Shown here in pieces: positions 5,562-12,537 of a DNA stretch of 64,000 nucleotides. Source of the DNA: a virus; the IMG/VR virus record IMGVR_UViG_3300036790_000408, positions 70,437 to 134,436 of that record. One strand, given 5' to 3'. Below the pieces are notes generated by a model. It searched no databases. It was not told where the DNA came from and saw only the letters and a program-made list of their open reading frames with translations. Positions within the stretch are counted from its first letter, which is position 1; every line of letters begins with the position of its first letter. The position numbers were made by a program, and so were the translations under genes.

Positions 5562-5852
5562 TTAGGAGAAGAGAAAAATCTCGATTGTCTCACCGGTAAG
5601 GTTGCCGGAAAGCGCAGCAACATTCAGCGTAAAACCGGTGTTGGTGGGGCTGCTGATGAAGGCGACAGCGGCCTCCTTCATGCAGGGAATAGCGATATAG
5701 GGTGTTGGAACCGGCTCCGTCCAAGTGACTGCAACGGTCGCTGTGCTGGCACTTCCGGCATACGTCGCCGAGACTGAGCCGATGCAAATCCTATCCGCGA
5801 GGTTCGGCAGCAAGCCGTCCGGCGAATAGGCGGTATGAAAAGCTACGCCCAT
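5562..5852 (-). CDS. Hypothetical virion-associated protein
   Basis: 96 aa, beta-rich, coupled to the portal stop codon. Confidence 0.55.
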   Translation of the reverse strand: MGVAFHTAYSPDGLLPNLADRICIGSVSATYAGSASTATVAVTWTEPVPTPYIAIPCMKEAAVAFISSPTNTGFTLNVAALSGNLTGETIEIFLFS

Positions 5853-7309
5853 CAGGGATCTTCCTCGGGTTCGAATGATGCGGCCAGGCGCGGTGGCGCA
5901 GGCCGCGGATTGGCTCCTGCGGCAGGCTTCGCTGGACCCACGGTCGGCGGTTGCTGCGGTCTCGTCTTGTTGGAGGCGAGATCTGGATCGTCGATTACCG
6001 CTGTACCCTTGGCCGCCTGGATGGCGATGTCGGCGTCACTCTTGGTCATGTCACCCCAGGCATTCTCGGCCGGGGCTTCACCAAGCTTTCGGCGGATTTC
6101 GTTCGGGGTGAAAACGTTCGCGCCGTAGTACCGCGTCAGGATGGTGGAGGTCTTTTCCAGGTCTTCCCGCTCAACACCCTTCCACAAGAACCGAAGTTGA
6201 GAGAACCCAAGAGCACCCCAGACCACCTTGCGGGTGAGAGCGTTGGCCAGCACCGTTGCCATCGGCTTGATAGCGTGGATCCACTCTCGATCCTCACCAA
6301 CTTCGGCCGTGCTCCGGTTGACGTCACGTTCCAGGTTCAGCGACATGTTCGAGATGTCGAACGCAGCCGCGACCTCGGTGCGAATGAATTCCTGGTATTG
6401 CAGATAGAGCGCTTTGTCGCCCTCAGGGTAGAGCTTCTGCACCGCCAACCCGCGAGTGCGCCCAGCCCCAGCCTGCCCGTCCACCAGTTCGGTGCCGATG
6501 ATCGGGATCTTGCCCTGACCTTCGATCTCGTTGGTCCAGTACGTGCGCCACGTTTCGACCATGCGGGTCGAGACTTCGCCAAGGTCGATGGCGAACGGTG
6601 GCAGTGCGTTGCCGGCCAGCTTCGCGGCGAATGAGGCTGTGGCAAGCTGGTTCGAGATGCTCTGGAAGGCAACTTCGAGCGGGCCGTAGCCAAACGGCGA
6701 ATGAGTCGATGGATTGGGTCGAATGTAAACGATCTCGTCGTCACGAAGCTTCACGCCGGGCTGCTGGCCTTGGGTGAAGTTGCCGCCATAGCCGAGCGTT
6801 TGTAGGTAGCGCGGCTCGTTCTTACCGCCCTTCCAGCCAGGGAAGATGTTGATCGACAAACCGTCCACCGGCCACAGGAACACCGGGCGATCCGGGAACT
6901 CTGACTTGCCAATCTCGATCACACCGGCGCCGAGACAGACATCGTTGATGACCTGGCTCAACAGGGTGTTGAAGCTGTCATCGTCGTTCGGCAAACTGAA
7001 ACACAGCGTGGCGACTTCGATCTGTCGCCTGATCTCCGAGTTGGGCGATATGCCCTTGTTCGGAGCGATCTCCCACTCAAGCTGGGATAATGGGTTCTTA
7101 ATCGTATTGATCGCGCGGCGGGCGATCGGCGTGTTGGAGAAATAGCGCAGGTTGCGCGGGGTTGGTTTGTAAACAACGCGACTGGATTGAGTGTACGCGT
7201 TCTGCCCAATCATGATCAGATTGGGGAAGGCGATCGACTCTCGTGTCGGCTCCTTGGTCGGTCGACCCAAACGCCGGGGCCGCCAGGTGAAGATATCCTT
7301 GACTGCCAC
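5852..7309 (-). CDS. Phage portal protein
   Basis: 485 aa after TerL. Portal-type segments include LWPVDGLSI, EIVYIRPNPSTHSPFGYGPLE, RTEVAAAFDIS and FTPNEIRRKLGEAP. Confidence 0.88.
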   Translation of the reverse strand: MAVKDIFTWRPRRLGRPTKEPTRESIAFPNLIMIGQNAYTQSSRVVYKPTPRNLRYFSNTPIARRAINTIKNPLSQLEWEIAPNKGISPNSEIRRQIEVATLCFSLPNDDDSFNTLLSQVINDVCLGAGVIEIGKSEFPDRPVFLWPVDGLSINIFPGWKGGKNEPRYLQTLGYGGNFTQGQQPGVKLRDDEIVYIRPNPSTHSPFGYGPLEVAFQSISNQLATASFAAKLAGNALPPFAIDLGEVSTRMVETWRTYWTNEIEGQGKIPIIGTELVDGQAGAGRTRGLAVQKLYPEGDKALYLQYQEFIRTEVAAAFDISNMSLNLERDVNRSTAEVGEDREWIHAIKPMATVLANALTRKVVWGALGFSQLRFLWKGVEREDLEKTSTILTRYYGANVFTPNEIRRKLGEAPAENAWGDMTKSDADIAIQAAKGTAVIDDPDLASNKTRPQQPPTVGPAKPAAGANPRPAPPRLAASFEPEEDP

Positions 7310-7331: not shown

Positions 7332-7850
7332 CTATGGCTTTATCGCACACGCCCAGTCTTGCCTCATGACCAGCACGTCGAACCGCGCATGGATTGCCTT
7401 GCGCCCGCCGACTGTATCCATGTCGTCAAATGCCATAACCCCGCCTGACACCATGCGCGGCCAGAAATTATCAATCACCGCCAGCACGCTTTGGTACTGG
7501 TCGCAGTCACAATGCACGAAGGCGACTTCCTGCACATCATCAGTCAGGGTGCTGGGGAAGACGCCGGCGTGAAAGATAGCGTCTGGAATGTAGGCCTGAA
7601 CGTGCACCAGAGAGGTGTTGGAGAAATCCCCGACCTTGTGTGTATCGAAGTCCTCAGCGTGCGGCATACCAGAGAACGTGTCGTAGAGGTGTAGATCCCG
7701 CTTTTGCGTCCTGGCAACTCTGGATAGATACCAAGCCGATCCGCCCTGGAAAACGCCAACCTCGACGAAGGCGCCGGGAGGCGCGTCGAAAGCGATACTG
7801 GTCAGACAGGCTATCCTGGCTTTGTGGATGACCGAATGTGGAGGTGTCAC
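7332..7850 (-). CDS. TylF/MycF-family O-methyltransferase
   Basis: Motifs GAFVEVGVFQGGS, LYDTFSGMP, FVHCDCDQYQS and GGVMAFDD. The GTG start overlaps the TerL stop. Confidence 0.82.
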   Translation of the reverse strand: MTPPHSVIHKARIACLTSIAFDAPPGAFVEVGVFQGGSAWYLSRVARTQKRDLHLYDTFSGMPHAEDFDTHKVGDFSNTSLVHVQAYIPDAIFHAGVFPSTLTDDVQEVAFVHCDCDQYQSVLAVIDNFWPRMVSGGVMAFDDMDTVGGRKAIHARFDVLVMRQDWACAIKP

Positions 7851-9313
7851 AGGAGGCGCGTTATGATCGGATCGGCGGGGCGCGCAAAGGCGAGAACCAA
7901 ACTATCCCCACGGTCAGGGCTGCGGCCGATACGTTCGATCAAGTCCTCCTTGTCCTCTACCTGCAGACCATTCGTTTTGTAGGTGTACCGCGGCGCGGTG
8001 AGGTCGTTGAGCAACTGGCGGTCGGGCGGAATGGCGAGGTCATCACCAAGATTGGGATCAAGAGCTTCTCGCAGTTTCCACCACCACTCAGTCTTCTTGC
8101 GGGTGAACCCAAGCTGTCCGCTCGAGTCCCTGGCAAAACTACTTTGCCTGGCATCCATCGCGTAGGCTTTGAGGCCAGAGGCTTTGGCCAAGTCATAGAC
8201 GCTGGCGCCAATATTGATGACATCGATGTTGATCGAGGGCCGCTCGCCGGACGGGATCGCACCAGCGATCAGCTCCAGCACCCTGAAACCATCCGGCGTT
8301 TCGGTGCCGGGAAAGGTCATCTGCTCGTCAAACCAAGGTCCGTAACGGGCCGTAATTACGGTATAGTCCTTGCCGCCGCGCGCCACGTCAACGCCGAGCG
8401 AGTCCATCCTGATCCGGGGATCGAGGTCTTCCTTCGGCTTCCAGCGCGCCTGTGCCTGCAACACCCACTCAGTCGGAATGATCTGCCGCGGATGATCTTC
8501 GTGACCGACCAGGAAGTCGCCATGAAGCATCTGGCTTCGCAGCGGCTCCGGCATCGCCTGGAGCACCGACATGTACCCGCTCTGCATGTAGACCGGATTG
8601 TCGGTCAGGCGAGCGCGAATGAATGTTCGGCTAAGCGGTTGAACCGGGTAAGGCTCGCCAGGGACATAGATCAGCCCAGGGCCATCGACCTCGGTATCGA
8701 TCATCCTGCCGGTTTTCTTGTCCTTGATCTGCGCGAACCAACGAAGTTCACCGTCAGCAGCAGGACGAGAATGTTTCGGATCCAGCCAAGGTGACCAGAA
8801 CGCGGTCACCCAGTAGCCCTCTTGGTTTGTCGGCGGGTTGCCAGTGGCCACCACGCGAGACCGCTGACCCCTTACGTCAGAGCGGTTCCAGCCCATCAAG
8901 AACCGGAACTGGCTCTCGTGAAAATGGGTGATCTCGTCGAAGCCCTTCAGGTCATGTGGGCGACCCTGGTAGGCTTGTTCATCGCCGAGGATCTGGCAGG
9001 CGCCAAACTCTACCCGGCGCCGCTTCTCGCCAACCTTGAGCCGCCAGATTTCCTTTTGGCCATTGAAGGTGCCGAACGGCAGATAGAGCGTTTCCGCGCG
9101 CTCCCGGAGACCCTGTAGCTGCTTGAACGATCGTCTAAAAATAATAGACGAAGAATGTTCCGTGCCACTGAGTCCAAGAAGGAGATCGCTCTTGCCTCCG
9201 CCGGCTGCGCCGCCGAAGAATAGGATATCAGCCTTGCTCTCCATTGCCCGCGTCTGAGGGCCCGGGAACGGGGTCCAGATCAACGGCTCCGCTGATTTCG
9301 AGCGGCGCTCCAT
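7847..9313 (-). CDS. terL: Terminase large subunit
   Basis: WTPFPGPQ, Walker A GGAAGGGKS, Walker B GFDEITHF, motif C ATGNPP, and nuclease motifs LGVDVARGGKD and SPDRGDSL. The frame is open to 9415; ATG 9313 has a GAGGTG RBS. Confidence 0.93.
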   Translation of the reverse strand: MERRSKSAEPLIWTPFPGPQTRAMESKADILFFGGAAGGGKSDLLLGLSGTEHSSSIIFRRSFKQLQGLRERAETLYLPFGTFNGQKEIWRLKVGEKRRRVEFGACQILGDEQAYQGRPHDLKGFDEITHFHESQFRFLMGWNRSDVRGQRSRVVATGNPPTNQEGYWVTAFWSPWLDPKHSRPAADGELRWFAQIKDKKTGRMIDTEVDGPGLIYVPGEPYPVQPLSRTFIRARLTDNPVYMQSGYMSVLQAMPEPLRSQMLHGDFLVGHEDHPRQIIPTEWVLQAQARWKPKEDLDPRIRMDSLGVDVARGGKDYTVITARYGPWFDEQMTFPGTETPDGFRVLELIAGAIPSGERPSINIDVINIGASVYDLAKASGLKAYAMDARQSSFARDSSGQLGFTRKKTEWWWKLREALDPNLGDDLAIPPDRQLLNDLTAPRYTYKTNGLQVEDKEDLIERIGRSPDRGDSLVLAFARPADPIITRLL

Positions 9314-9758
9314 TTCGACCGACACCTCGGCCAAGAGCGTTTCCCTCTGTGAGGGATCTAAAGACCGCAGCGAGCGCAGTATCGTCGAGGTTTCTGATTG
9401 TGATTGGCTCACCATTCTTACCCGTCAGTTCTTTGCGGGTAACTTCCTGCCAACCACCGAATTGCCGGAGCCATGCGAGCATCGCACGCATATCGCCGCC
9501 CATCGCGGCATTGACCAATCGAAGCGACACCGCGGCATAGACGTAGTCTTGGCCCATCGCTAGCTCGCTGCTGAACTGCTCCTGCAGCACGTCCTCGGTA
9601 ATTCCCAGCATGTGAGCCATGGCCGGGATGGTCGCCTTGGTCGACGACATCATCCGAACTTGCATAGCCCGCTTGCGGGCGAGTTCGGCGTCCTCTGGCG
9701 GCGGCCGGATCTTCTTTGGCCTGCCTCTGGGTCGACCGGTTACTTCACTGCGCGCCAT
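9228..9758 (-). CDS. terS: Terminase small subunit
   Basis: N-terminal GRPKK and HTH-like MAHMLGITEDVL; C-terminal ELTGKNGEPI; immediately upstream of TerL. Confidence 0.8.
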   Translation of the reverse strand: MARSEVTGRPRGRPKKIRPPPEDAELARKRAMQVRMMSSTKATIPAMAHMLGITEDVLQEQFSSELAMGQDYVYAAVSLRLVNAAMGGDMRAMLAWLRQFGGWQEVTRKELTGKNGEPITIRNLDDTALAAVFRSLTEGNALGRGVGRNGAPLEISGAVDLDPVPGPSDAGNGEQG

Positions 9759-10387
9759 TGGCGATATTCAGCCGCAGCCTCGACGCATTGACGAAAAATA
9801 GTGGACTCGGCGGTCGGCGCGGGACGCAGCCAGACCGGCTTATTCAAACCACCGAACATCGCCTTAGCCCTGCGAATGTCAGCGCTGTCCCGAATGGAAA
9901 CCAGGATCTCGTCGGCCCGCTTGATCGTGTCGGGATGGATGCCAGCCCAGTCGCTCATGGTGTTGGCGCGCAGGGTGGTCCAGGATCCCTCGACGTCGGT
10001 TCTCACATGGCCAGTGGTGTCGATCTGCACTCGACAGCCGCCGGTGATCAGATCGCGCACCAGCATGGTGAGGTCGTGACTGGCGGGCTCCGGACCGTGG
10101 ATCACGATATGATAGCGGTGGTGAGTAAGAGCGAGTTTGGCCAACGTGCTTGGCCCAACATATGAAAACTCAGGGCCGTGGAATTTCTTTCCCAGCATCT
10201 TGTTGAGGCTGATTTCGTTCGACGGATCGTACTCCCAATCCGCGATCGGCTGGAGGGGTCCGTCTTTCCCGGTCGGTACATCGATCTCAGGGTTTTGCAT
10301 CAGCCGGATCATTAGCGCCGGCACACCAGCCCATTGACCATCTGGCTGGATATTGAAGGTGACTGAGTTGACCGGCAGGGAACTCAT
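9740..10387 (-). CDS. QueE (7-carboxy-7-deazaguanine synthase)-like protein lacking the radical-SAM CxxxCxxC motif
   Basis: True start is ATG 10387 (ATGA overlap with the methylase stop). It aligns along its length with QueE: PVNSVTFNIQPDGQWAGVPALMIRL, HIVIHGPEPASHDL, CRVQIDTTG, RADEI, VWLRP. Confidence 0.75.
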   Translation of the reverse strand: MSSLPVNSVTFNIQPDGQWAGVPALMIRLMQNPEIDVPTGKDGPLQPIADWEYDPSNEISLNKMLGKKFHGPEFSYVGPSTLAKLALTHHRYHIVIHGPEPASHDLTMLVRDLITGGCRVQIDTTGHVRTDVEGSWTTLRANTMSDWAGIHPDTIKRADEILVSIRDSADIRRAKAMFGGLNKPVWLRPAPTAESTIFRQCVEAAAEYRQWRAVK

Positions 10388-11682
10388 GCCGCGACGTCGC
10401 TGGTGGGTCGATCGAGCAGGAGCTCCTGGTAGGTCTTGCCGGTCTCCTCGTTGACCGCCTGTTCGCCGGTGAAATCCTGCCAACGCTGGATGCTGACGTC
10501 GATCATCGCCGGGGAGATATCGATCCCGACACAGGTTCGTTGGGTCAGTTCGCAGGCCATCAAGGTCGTGCCACTGCCGATGAAGGGATCGTAGACAACT
10601 TGCCCCTCGCTGGTGTTGTTCTCGATCGGCCGCAGCATGCATTCGACTGGCTTCTGGGTGGCTGAGCCGGTCTCATTCGACGCCTGCTTTTCGATAGTCC
10701 AGAGCGTCGTCTGCTTGGTGCCGCCGTTCCAATTGGCCGTCTTGTTTTTCCGCACCGCATAAAAACAAGGCTCATGCTGCATGTGATACTGGCGCCCTGG
10801 GCTGACGACGAATTTTGTCTTTGCCCAAATGATCTGCTGGCGAACTTCAAACCCAGCATCCTGCAACGCGAGTTGCGCCGTCATCGGGTCTCTCGCGGCG
10901 TGCCAAAGGTAAGTGATGTCGCCGGTGAATAGCTTGATGGCCGGTTGCCAGTTGGCGATCTCTTCATCCGCGGCCGGAACACCCTCAATCGCCCTATTCT
11001 TGCCGGTGGAGAGGCGCTTGCCATTGGCTCGTTTGGCCCTAGCACGCTTGGTCGGGTCGTATTCAATGAACGGTGGGGCAGTGACCATAAGGGTCGGCGA
11101 TATGCCGTTCATCGCGATGTTGGCGGTATCGAACTGGGTGCTGTCGCCGCACACCAGGCGATGCTTGTTCAGGATCCACACGTCACCGAGTTTGGAGACG
11201 GGATCGACTGGGGCTGTTGGGGTGTCGTCCGGATCGGCTTCGTCGTTCTCGGTCGAGCCGTCGGCTACGTCGGTGTAGAATTCGATCTCTTCCGGGTCGA
11301 AACCAGTAAATTCTAAGTCGTAATTCATCCCGTCGAGGTCAAGCAGCTCTAGAGTGACCAGACCTTTATCCCACTCTGCCCATGTTGCTGACCGATTAGC
11401 TAGTAATCGAAACGCTTTTACTTGAGCTTCCGACAATCCGTCAGCCAAGGCTACCGGCAATACTGTCAGACCAAGCTTTTTGGCCGCGTGCAGTCGGAGG
11501 TGGCCGTCGATCACCAGTCCAGTTGAGAGCGCCACGAGCGGAATTCTGAAACCGAACTCCTGGATGGCCGCCACCATCTTGTCAAGTTTATCGGCGTTCT
11601 TCCTGGGATTTCTACCGTACTCGATGAAGCGATCGATCGGCCAGTGCTCAACCTTGAGCTGAACCGATCCCTCAGATGCCAT
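10384..11682 (-). CDS. ParB-like N-terminal domain fused to an N6A/N4C DNA methyltransferase with altered catalytic motif (APPF)
   Basis: YGRNPRKN, FGFRIPLV and IDGHLRL (ParB/Srx); HRLVCGDST; VTAPPF in the DPPY position; HEPCFYAV; TQKPVE; VYDPFIGSGTT. Confidence 0.85.
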   Translation of the reverse strand: MASEGSVQLKVEHWPIDRFIEYGRNPRKNADKLDKMVAAIQEFGFRIPLVALSTGLVIDGHLRLHAAKKLGLTVLPVALADGLSEAQVKAFRLLANRSATWAEWDKGLVTLELLDLDGMNYDLEFTGFDPEEIEFYTDVADGSTENDEADPDDTPTAPVDPVSKLGDVWILNKHRLVCGDSTQFDTANIAMNGISPTLMVTAPPFIEYDPTKRARAKRANGKRLSTGKNRAIEGVPAADEEIANWQPAIKLFTGDITYLWHAARDPMTAQLALQDAGFEVRQQIIWAKTKFVVSPGRQYHMQHEPCFYAVRKNKTANWNGGTKQTTLWTIEKQASNETGSATQKPVECMLRPIENNTSEGQVVYDPFIGSGTTLMACELTQRTCVGIDISPAMIDVSIQRWQDFTGEQAVNEETGKTYQELLLDRPTSDVAA

Positions 11683-11985
11683 ACATGGGATGTCCGGAAT
11701 GGAGGCGTGAAGCGTCTCAGCCCCACCTCTGGGGAACATAGTTCTTTTTATGATGCTGGGGTGAAAGCGTCGTCAAGCATTTGTTCGTGCGGGAAAGTTC
11801 ACATCGGCCCAAGCGCCACGACAAATATGTCACATAGACGCCCAAACATGCATGGATAATTATTGGGCATATCAATGTGTTGGAAGCTTTCCGCGCACCA
11901 GCTTTTCACTTCGTGCGCGGATCATGGTGTGGGTGAAATATTTTATTTTGGGCAACCCAGGGAAAGCGAATCGGGTACGCGCATA

Positions 11986-12537
11986 TCAGGCCGCTTTTCG
12001 ACGTTGGATAGTGCGCACGGAAACTCCATGCGCCGCGGCGATCTCCTTGTCACTCCAACCTTCCACCAGATCGACCACCAACGCCTTGCGCCCCGTGTAT
12101 TTCCCGGCCCGCCGAGCTACGGCGATCCCCTCCTTCTGGCGCTCCAGCATGATCTCCCGCTCCCAGGTGGCCACGCCGGCCAGGATGGTAAGCATCAGCT
12201 TCGAGGTCGGGTTGCGGGTATCGAGGCGCTCGCCGCCCATGGACAGGATCAACAGCCCGACGCCGCGCTTGGACAGGTCAGCCTCGATGGTCAGGAGTTC
12301 GGCCGTCGACCTAGCCAACCGATCAGGCTTGGTGACGGCCAGGGTATCACCGGCCTCCAGTGAGGCTAGGGCGGCGATGAGTTTGTCGCGCTCCACCATG
12401 GAAGAGACCTGCTCTGAAAATATTAGATGGCAGCCTAGCGCCTTAAGGTCTCGCTCCTGGGCTTCAAGTCCAGCGACCTGCTCGACGGTAGAGGTGCGTG
12501 CGTAGCCTACGATCTTGGTCATATCAACCATCCCCAT
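11986..12537 (-). CDS. Small serine recombinase (resolvase/invertase family) with C-terminal HTH
   Basis: GYARTST with the catalytic Ser, VTKPDRLARS, EREIMLERQKEGI, and a C-terminal EIAAAHGVSVRTI HTH. Confidence 0.92.
   Translation of the reverse strand: MGMVDMTKIVGYARTSTVEQVAGLEAQERDLKALGCHLIFSEQVSSMVERDKLIAALASLEAGDTLAVTKPDRLARSTAELLTIEADLSKRGVGLLILSMGGERLDTRNPTSKLMLTILAGVATWEREIMLERQKEGIAVARRAGKYTGRKALVVDLVEGWSDKEIAAAHGVSVRTIQRRKAA

Follow-up and report, generated by a model that had tools for sequence, protein, structure and literature searches.

A QueE-like protein without cluster ligands, encoded between DNA-methylase and terminase genes of a soil phage-type element

Introduction

What can a QueE protein still do when the cysteines that ligate its [4Fe-4S] cluster have disappeared? 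This question is raised by a gene located between a DNA-methylase gene and the terminase genes of a viral element from soil. The gene lies in a stretch of 64,000 nucleotides, positions 70,437 to 134,436 of IMG/VR record IMGVR_UViG_3300036790_000408 (hereafter called the window), which is part of a complete record of 134,436 bp with terminal repeats. A preliminary description, made from the letters of the window, proposed that the gene encodes a full-length QueE homologue in which the radical-SAM cysteine motif is replaced, and that this fold is kept for a new role, for example as a decoy for host QueE or Dpd systems or as a packaging accessory. Enzyme families often give rise to inactive relatives with new roles. 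Here, the gene, its relatives and its genomic surroundings are examined, and the possible functions of its product are weighed.

The QueE-like gene and its product

The features of the window that are relevant here are the following.

5852-7309, minus strand: portal protein
7332-7850: TylF/macrocin-O-methyltransferase-like gene, between the large-terminase and portal genes
7847-9415, minus strand: large terminase (terL), 522 aa
9228-9758, minus strand: candidate small terminase (terS), 176 aa, assigned by its position and by homologues located after the methylase gene in relatives, with no match to a family
9740-10387, stop codon included, minus strand: QueE-like cluster-less protein, 215 aa (P0001)
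10384-10387, minus strand: ATGA, overlap of the methylase stop codon and the QueE-like start codon, the same in two related loci (L002 and L003, see below) and generic for the methylase family
10384-11739, minus strand: fusion of a ParB-like domain and an N6/N4 DNA methyltransferase, with TAPPF as motif IV

In the list of open reading frames, the gene appears as a 300-aa version (9740-10642) that starts within the methylase gene. This version is evidently an artefact, due to a frame that stays open further upstream, because all members of the family share the internal start Met of P0001 and because the GC content by codon position of the additional 85 codons (0.82/0.58/0.44) is of a non-coding type; that of the 215-aa ORF (0.59/0.46/0.70) is as in the methylase and terL genes. 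Thus, the N-terminal extension of 85 aa is false, as was suspected in the preliminary description, which also considered the ORF intact: the 215-aa frame at 9740-10387 is uninterrupted, and intact frames are found across the clade described below. The 3' end of the gene overlaps the start of the terS candidate by 19 nt.

The protein is a QueE homologue, with a similarity far beyond chance. A phmmer search against PDB sequences aligned its residues 4-212 colinearly with residues 23-231 of Escherichia coli QueE (6NHL; E 7.6e-10), and the NCBIfam model for E. coli-type QueE, TIGR04322, matched with an E value of 7.6e-16 at 58.2 bits, which is far under the curated cut-off of 200 bits of that model. 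The PHROGs family phrog_2076 ("QueE-like radical SAM domain") was matched with an E value of 1.6e-7. A Pfam search yielded no family at E values up to 10, the radical-SAM models PF04055, Fer4_12 and Fer4_14 included, and a word-indexed protein search returned the query alone.

The structural search that had been suggested at the outset recovers QueE as well. An AF2 model of P0001 (pLDDT 91.4, pTM 0.88, with a loop at residues 41-45 below 50) gave 6NHL as the top Foldseek match (TM 0.80, E 1e-14), followed by the QueE proteins of B. subtilis and B. multivorans, and a Foldseek search of BFVD matched phage QueE-like proteins. Because the input alignment of the AF2 model consisted mostly of canonical QueE sequences, the separate model of P0001 in the ESM Atlas (pTM 0.80, TM 0.78 to QueE clusters) is a useful cross-check.

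Catalytic residues and pathway partners

To collect homologues, 1.84 billion cluster representatives were scanned exhaustively with HMMER, which yielded 105 matches. The nine full-length best matches (P0002-P0010; 210-229 aa, 33-47% identity, E 5e-54 to 1.5e-17) all lack CxxxCxxC. Cysteines are also missing in a fragment of 118 aa (P0011), in the near-copies P0106 (92% identity) and P0107 (88%), and in the protein encoded by L002; the protein encoded by L003 is identical to P0009. In all, the Cys-less family comprises about 11 divergent metagenome sequences, or about a dozen sequences altogether, and is very rare. A scan of genome contigs found no cultured genome with the family; a match in Glycomyces (L005) was rejected as spurious, as it is not a QueE-like ORF. 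When P0001 alone was compared with viral contigs, no related locus was found.

The roles of individual residues were taken from E. coli QueE (PMC11142719), and their occurrence was counted in an alignment of 52 sequences. Two segments of P0001 stand out.

10223-10300, minus strand: replaced cluster loop, residues 30-55, rich in Pro and acidic residues, with CxxxCxxC and the Mg-binding Thr gone; the part of the model with the lowest confidence
10085-10096, minus strand: G-P-E-P where canonical QueE has the SAM-binding GGEP motif, residues 98-101

The replacement of the cluster motif, claimed in the preliminary description together with the change of GGEP into GPEP, is borne out by the alignment. 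P0001 has two Cys in total (118 and 201), hence none in residues 1-117 or in the cluster loop. CxxxCxxC is found in none of the 14 rows of the clade (P0001-P0010, P0106, P0107 and the L002 and L003 proteins) versus all 38 more distant homologues that were classified, and the columns of C31 and C35 are likewise occupied by Cys in 0/11 Cys-less members versus 38/38 canonical sequences. The same distribution was found for the second Gly of GGEP, G94 (P99 in P0001). Two other residues are also absent from all 11 Cys-less members, i.e., S136 (present in 36/38 canonical sequences; R140 in P0001) and Q189 (34/38; R188 in P0001). R27 is present in 3/11 Cys-less members versus 37/38 canonical sequences, and the clade lacks the Mg ligand T40, where ten of the 11 members have Pro (P47 in P0001, as placed by the alignment with 6NHL). 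P0001 has Leu instead of the Lys of the "EIK" strand, and the C-terminal QxHKY tail is missing in the clade. Because the ligands of the [4Fe-4S] cluster, the Mg ligand, three SAM contacts, the tail and, in most members, the substrate-binding Arg are gone, P0001 is predicted to be incapable of cleaving SAM or making 7-carboxy-7-deazaguanine (CDG) and, hence, of working as a QueE.

The genomic surroundings agree with the statement in the preliminary description that queC, queD, folE and dpdA are missing from the window, and this absence extends beyond the window: no TGT/DpdA, QueC, PTPS/QueD or GTP cyclohydrolase I (FolE) is encoded in the complete 134-kb record. That record has no second QueE either, and L002, a relative of 34 kb, has neither TGT nor QueC.

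Other residues of the barrel face have been retained. P0001 has equivalents of the substrate contacts in Q14, D16 (for E15) and R28 (for R27). Within the clade, 8/11 members have Q14 and 9/11 an acid at the position of E15, and the glutamate of GGE is E or D in 11/11, as many as contain Q121, T124 and E160. Possibly, then, the protein is still an enzyme, of a non-radical type, or a specific binder of a small molecule (guanine-like, pterin, 7-deazaguanine or adenosyl) that, for example, sequesters CDG. Q13 and E15 contact the substrate in E. coli QueE (PMC11142719), and CDG, the product of QueE, is the substrate of Cap9, a QueC-like defence enzyme of type IV CBASS, which conjugates it to proteins (bioRxiv 10.1101/2025.04.06.647259). 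QatC, too, is reported to use 7-deazaguanine chemistry in defence. However, few members retain R27, a residue whose loss is in itself enough to make E. coli QueE unable to support queuosine (Q) synthesis (PMC11142719); neither the Mg ligand nor the C-terminal tail is left, and P0004, P0006, P0009 and P0010 lack Q14 or the acid at the E15 position, so the canonical pocket is not a constraint on the whole family. Furthermore, the usual anchor of SAM is absent from the protein. SAM normally binds through the cluster. On balance, a remaining enzymatic or small-molecule-binding function is considered unlikely, although a residual ligand pocket has to be taken seriously as a rival to the reading favoured below.

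Origin and retention of the Cys-less clade

In a quick maximum-likelihood tree, the Cys-less rows are all found on one side of a branch with an SH-aLRT support of 99. The loss of the motif requires one change on this tree, which was never equalled in 500 shuffles, and the internal branches of the clade measure 0.4-1.2 substitutions per site. To our knowledge, the cluster motif is present in every other type of QueE and in the radical-SAM superfamily at large. Because of this distribution and the single branch in the tree, the loss is best regarded as derived, as having occurred once, and as old.

Since then, the gene appears to have been maintained. The clade contains 18 invariant columns. Positions conserved specifically in the family are located within or close to the former cluster loop and the insert that follows it (W19, P47, E58, L61, L65, G78 and L82) and, in addition, at T81, L139 and P143. 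The 18 residues that differ between P0106 and P0001 are mostly conservative replacements (E/D, I/V, K/R, S/T), clustered in the replaced loop. A relative from another soil study has a stretch of methylase, QueE-like and terS genes with ~85% nucleotide identity to that in the window, and there is no indel in its QueE-like gene. A rough omega of ~0.05-0.1 is obtained from ~100 nucleotide versus 18-26 amino-acid differences, on the assumption that the contigs with ~85% identity encode P0106 or P0107. The conservation in the clade argues for purifying selection, because the divergent ORFs are intact, columns are invariant, replacements are conservative and indels are absent.

These data bear on the possibility that the gene is the functionless and decaying residue of a 7-deazaguanine cassette that the phage once had. 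As an orphan without pathway partners, it would fit such a remnant, and it encodes the least conserved of the late-operon proteins shared with the sister element L002, next to a methylase in which a motif is altered, too. However, open frames of similar length have persisted in ~11 lineages with identities down to 33%, and the 18 invariant columns, the conservative substitutions in close relatives and the coding-type GC content at third codon positions are not what decay would leave. We consider decay highly improbable. Rather, the protein is a predicted pseudoenzyme, the catalytic residues of which were lost while the intact gene was retained in the long term. Two points of the preliminary description can be judged from this clade. 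The close homologues of P0001 form one supported clade and do not contain CxxxCxxC, and the idea that a QueE fold unable to bind a cluster is kept for something other than CDG synthesis is strengthened by the age of this clade of intact ORFs.

Genomic context

The 134-kb element, which was assembled as a circle, contains both a full virion module of the myovirus type (sheath, tape measure, baseplate, portal and terminase) and a type IV secretion system of the VirB type (VirB1, B2, B4, B6, B8 and others), as seen at positions 1-26000 of the window and 50437-70436 of the record. Its terL shares 45% identity with terminases from proteobacterial phages, Bordetella BPP-1-like ones among them, and its VirB4 is ~37% identical to VirB4 of Rhizobiales plasmids. 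None of the sequencing runs listed for this DNA is an RNA run.

Two further loci with a QueE-like gene were recovered, i.e., L002, a viral contig of 34.5 kb that is also the contig of L004, and L003, of 12.5 kb. This brings the genomic contexts to three, two of which are from one lineage. L002 is a true sister element, with VirB4, resolvase, methylase, terS, terL, portal and capsid at 36-73% identity to those of the window. Its VirB4 gene (2713-5154 in L002) is located beside the same block of resolvase, methylase and terminase genes, which points to a conserved soil lineage of phage/conjugation hybrids. The QueE-like proteins of the two elements are 39% identical, the lowest value among the shared late-operon genes and to be compared with 47-73% for the other proteins in common; VirB4 is lower, at 36%.

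Several other features of these elements were observed. Directly upstream of the late operon in the window, and on the same strand, a serine recombinase of the resolvase/invertase type with an HTH is encoded (11986-12537), with 65% identity to its counterpart in the sister element. The TylF-like gene at 7332-7850 is missing from the sister element and is probably another accessory gene. The terL gene of L002 (11009-13567) encodes a protein of 852 aa with a Hint (intein-type) insert, which the terL of the window lacks. In the methylase of the window, motif IV (near 11068-11082) reads TAPPF and is followed by a deletion of one residue, whereas the methylases of L002 and L003 have TDPPY; the SAM motif DPFxGSGT is intact. 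The ParB-methylase of the window may be inactive or of altered chemistry.

In both L002 and L003, the ParB-methylase gene is followed, via ATGA, by the QueE-like gene and then by a terS homologue, after which terL and portal genes are found in L002. A partner or regulator of the ParB-DNA-methylase or the terminase, i.e., a translationally coupled accessory of DNA modification or packaging, could account for this arrangement, since the order of methylase, QueE-like and candidate terS genes and the ATGA are the same in 3/3 loci even though the QueE-like proteins are 33-39% identical. The significance of this linkage was assessed in a comparison set of 80 IMG/VR loci (L007-L086) with related ParB-methylases (43-52% identity). 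Among these, the QueE-like gene is found in one contig (L002), and the profile of the clade picked up no other. In at least eight of the 80 loci, the gene that follows the methylase is the terS homologue itself, which overlaps the methylase gene by 3-22 nt. Other occupants of the slot are an ORF of ~395 aa (a C5 cytosine methylase in the one that was scanned), an ORF of 75 aa (DUF7220 in the one that was scanned), a Terminase_4-type terS and an M48 peptidase. A 4-nt overlap of the ATGA type between the methylase and the next gene is found in ~30 of the 80 loci.

Thus, the preliminary description was correct in placing the QueE-like gene between the methylase and terS genes, with an order and an ATGA that recur in three loci, but the coupling that it emphasized is less specific than it seemed, since the overlap is generic and the slot is variable. 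The QueE-like gene is best described as inserted at the start of the packaging operon, in a slot where the accessory genes vary, and its coupling as presumably inherited from that operon rather than as a specific sign of a partnership with the methylase. With a variable slot and a generic overlap, linkage to the methylase and the terminase is weak evidence of such a partnership. The methylase overlaps whichever gene comes next in >30 related loci, terS is directly next in at least eight, and most relatives have no QueE-like gene. Furthermore, the methylase of the window has lost DPPY, whilst the QueE-like gene next to it is maintained. A role as partner of the methylase or the terminase is, therefore, rated as quite unlikely.

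Possible function

The reading that we favour, tentatively and with a probability of roughly 0.45, is that P0001 is an exapted pseudoenzyme with the fold of QueE, encoded by an accessory gene, which acts by binding rather than by catalysis and most likely binds a host protein. The cluster ligands were lost a single time, at the base of a small clade that is known only from soil-type metagenome phage contigs, and the gene has since been retained intact as an accessory in the slot between the ParB-DNA-methylase and terS. With the radical chemistry gone, the partial TIM-barrel scaffold would have been kept for binding, with a host protein as the probable target. The likely contact surface is formed by the Pro/acid loop and the conserved helical insert around the former cluster site. 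This surface is favoured because family-specific conservation (E58, L61, L65, G78, L82) is found in the loop and the insert. The corresponding surface of E. coli QueE is required for an effect on cell division and has been associated with specificity for flavodoxin (PMC11142719). The protein could thus serve as an accessory in host interaction or in counter-defence.

Some observations do not sit easily with this reading. Q14, D16, E100, Q121, T124 and E160 are largely conserved and may form a residual ligand pocket rather than reflect the binding of a host protein. Fast evolution is usual in genes for host interaction; however, the low conservation of the protein between the sister elements could also be due to relaxed constraint. 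The position of the gene in the late operon with the terminase genes is unusual for early counter-defence genes. A decoy in the narrower sense is very unlikely. Such a protein would either sequester CDG or another 7-deazaguanine intermediate or bind host QueE or the flavodoxin by which radical-SAM enzymes are reduced, and so disarm immunity based on 7-deazaguanines or on radical-SAM chemistry. Were it true, the affected systems would be deazaguanylation by type IV CBASS, Qat, Dpd or viperins. A PADLOC scan of P0001 was empty. A DNA mimic or a basic DNA-binding protein was also considered but finds no support, since the members of the family have a net charge close to zero.

The effect of E. 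coli QueE on cell division suggests yet another possibility, i.e., that P0001 is an inhibitor of division. It descends from E. coli-type QueE and retains a helical insert that aligns with E45-W67, the insert that is required for filamentation by E. coli QueE (PMC11142719). However, the C31A, C35A and C38A mutants of E. coli QueE lose the filamentation activity, and the effect is not seen outside enterobacteria (PMC11142719). Also K60, T61 and W67, which are conserved in enterobacteria, are unmatched in P0001. Inhibition of division by this protein is, consequently, hardly to be expected.

Comparison with known systems

P0001 resembles E. coli-type QueE (CDG synthase, EC 4.3.99.3; TIGR04322; 6NHL) over its full length in a colinear fashion, with ~25-29% identity. 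Both have a modified partial TIM-barrel (TM 0.80) with a helical insert after the cluster loop, and they share Q14, G21, P23, E100, P101, Q121, T124, W136, E160, D170 and C201 (numbering of P0001). In contrast to that enzyme, P0001 has no CxxxCxxC, has Pro for the Mg-binding Thr and a degenerate GGEP, shows replacement of S136 and Q189 and loss of the QxHKY tail, and reaches 58 bits where 200 are demanded; in its clade, moreover, R27 is mostly lost, and its element does not encode QueC, QueD, FolE or DpdA as partners.

The QueE proteins of phage 7-deazaguanine clusters (phrog_2076) are a second group for comparison. Such phage QueEs are described as acting with DpdA and the preQ0 pathway in the 7-deazaguanine modification of DNA (Hutinet et al., 2019, PMC6884629). 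P0001 is similarly a tailed-phage homologue of QueE, but it stands alone and has no cluster ligands.

A third comparison is with the moonlighting activity of E. coli QueE (PMC11142719). It provides a precedent for a QueE scaffold that acts via protein contacts, independently of Q synthesis, with an insert near the cluster. However, this activity depends on C31 and C35 and is confined to the QueE of enterobacteria, whereas P0001 is Cys-less and stems from a soil element.

In the literature that was searched, neither a Cys-less QueE nor a conserved protein that derives from a radical-SAM enzyme and is fully devoid of cluster ligands was found to be described. The rarity of the family, with about a dozen metagenome sequences, limits its immediate importance. 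If its target were a component of host defence or a redox partner, there would be a connection between phage accessory genes and the recently discovered immune systems that depend on 7-deazaguanines. More generally, the clade indicates that the scaffold of QueE remains stable and useful when the cofactor is gone, and this natural "cluster-free QueE" also offers a means to ask what the non-catalytic surfaces of QueE do.
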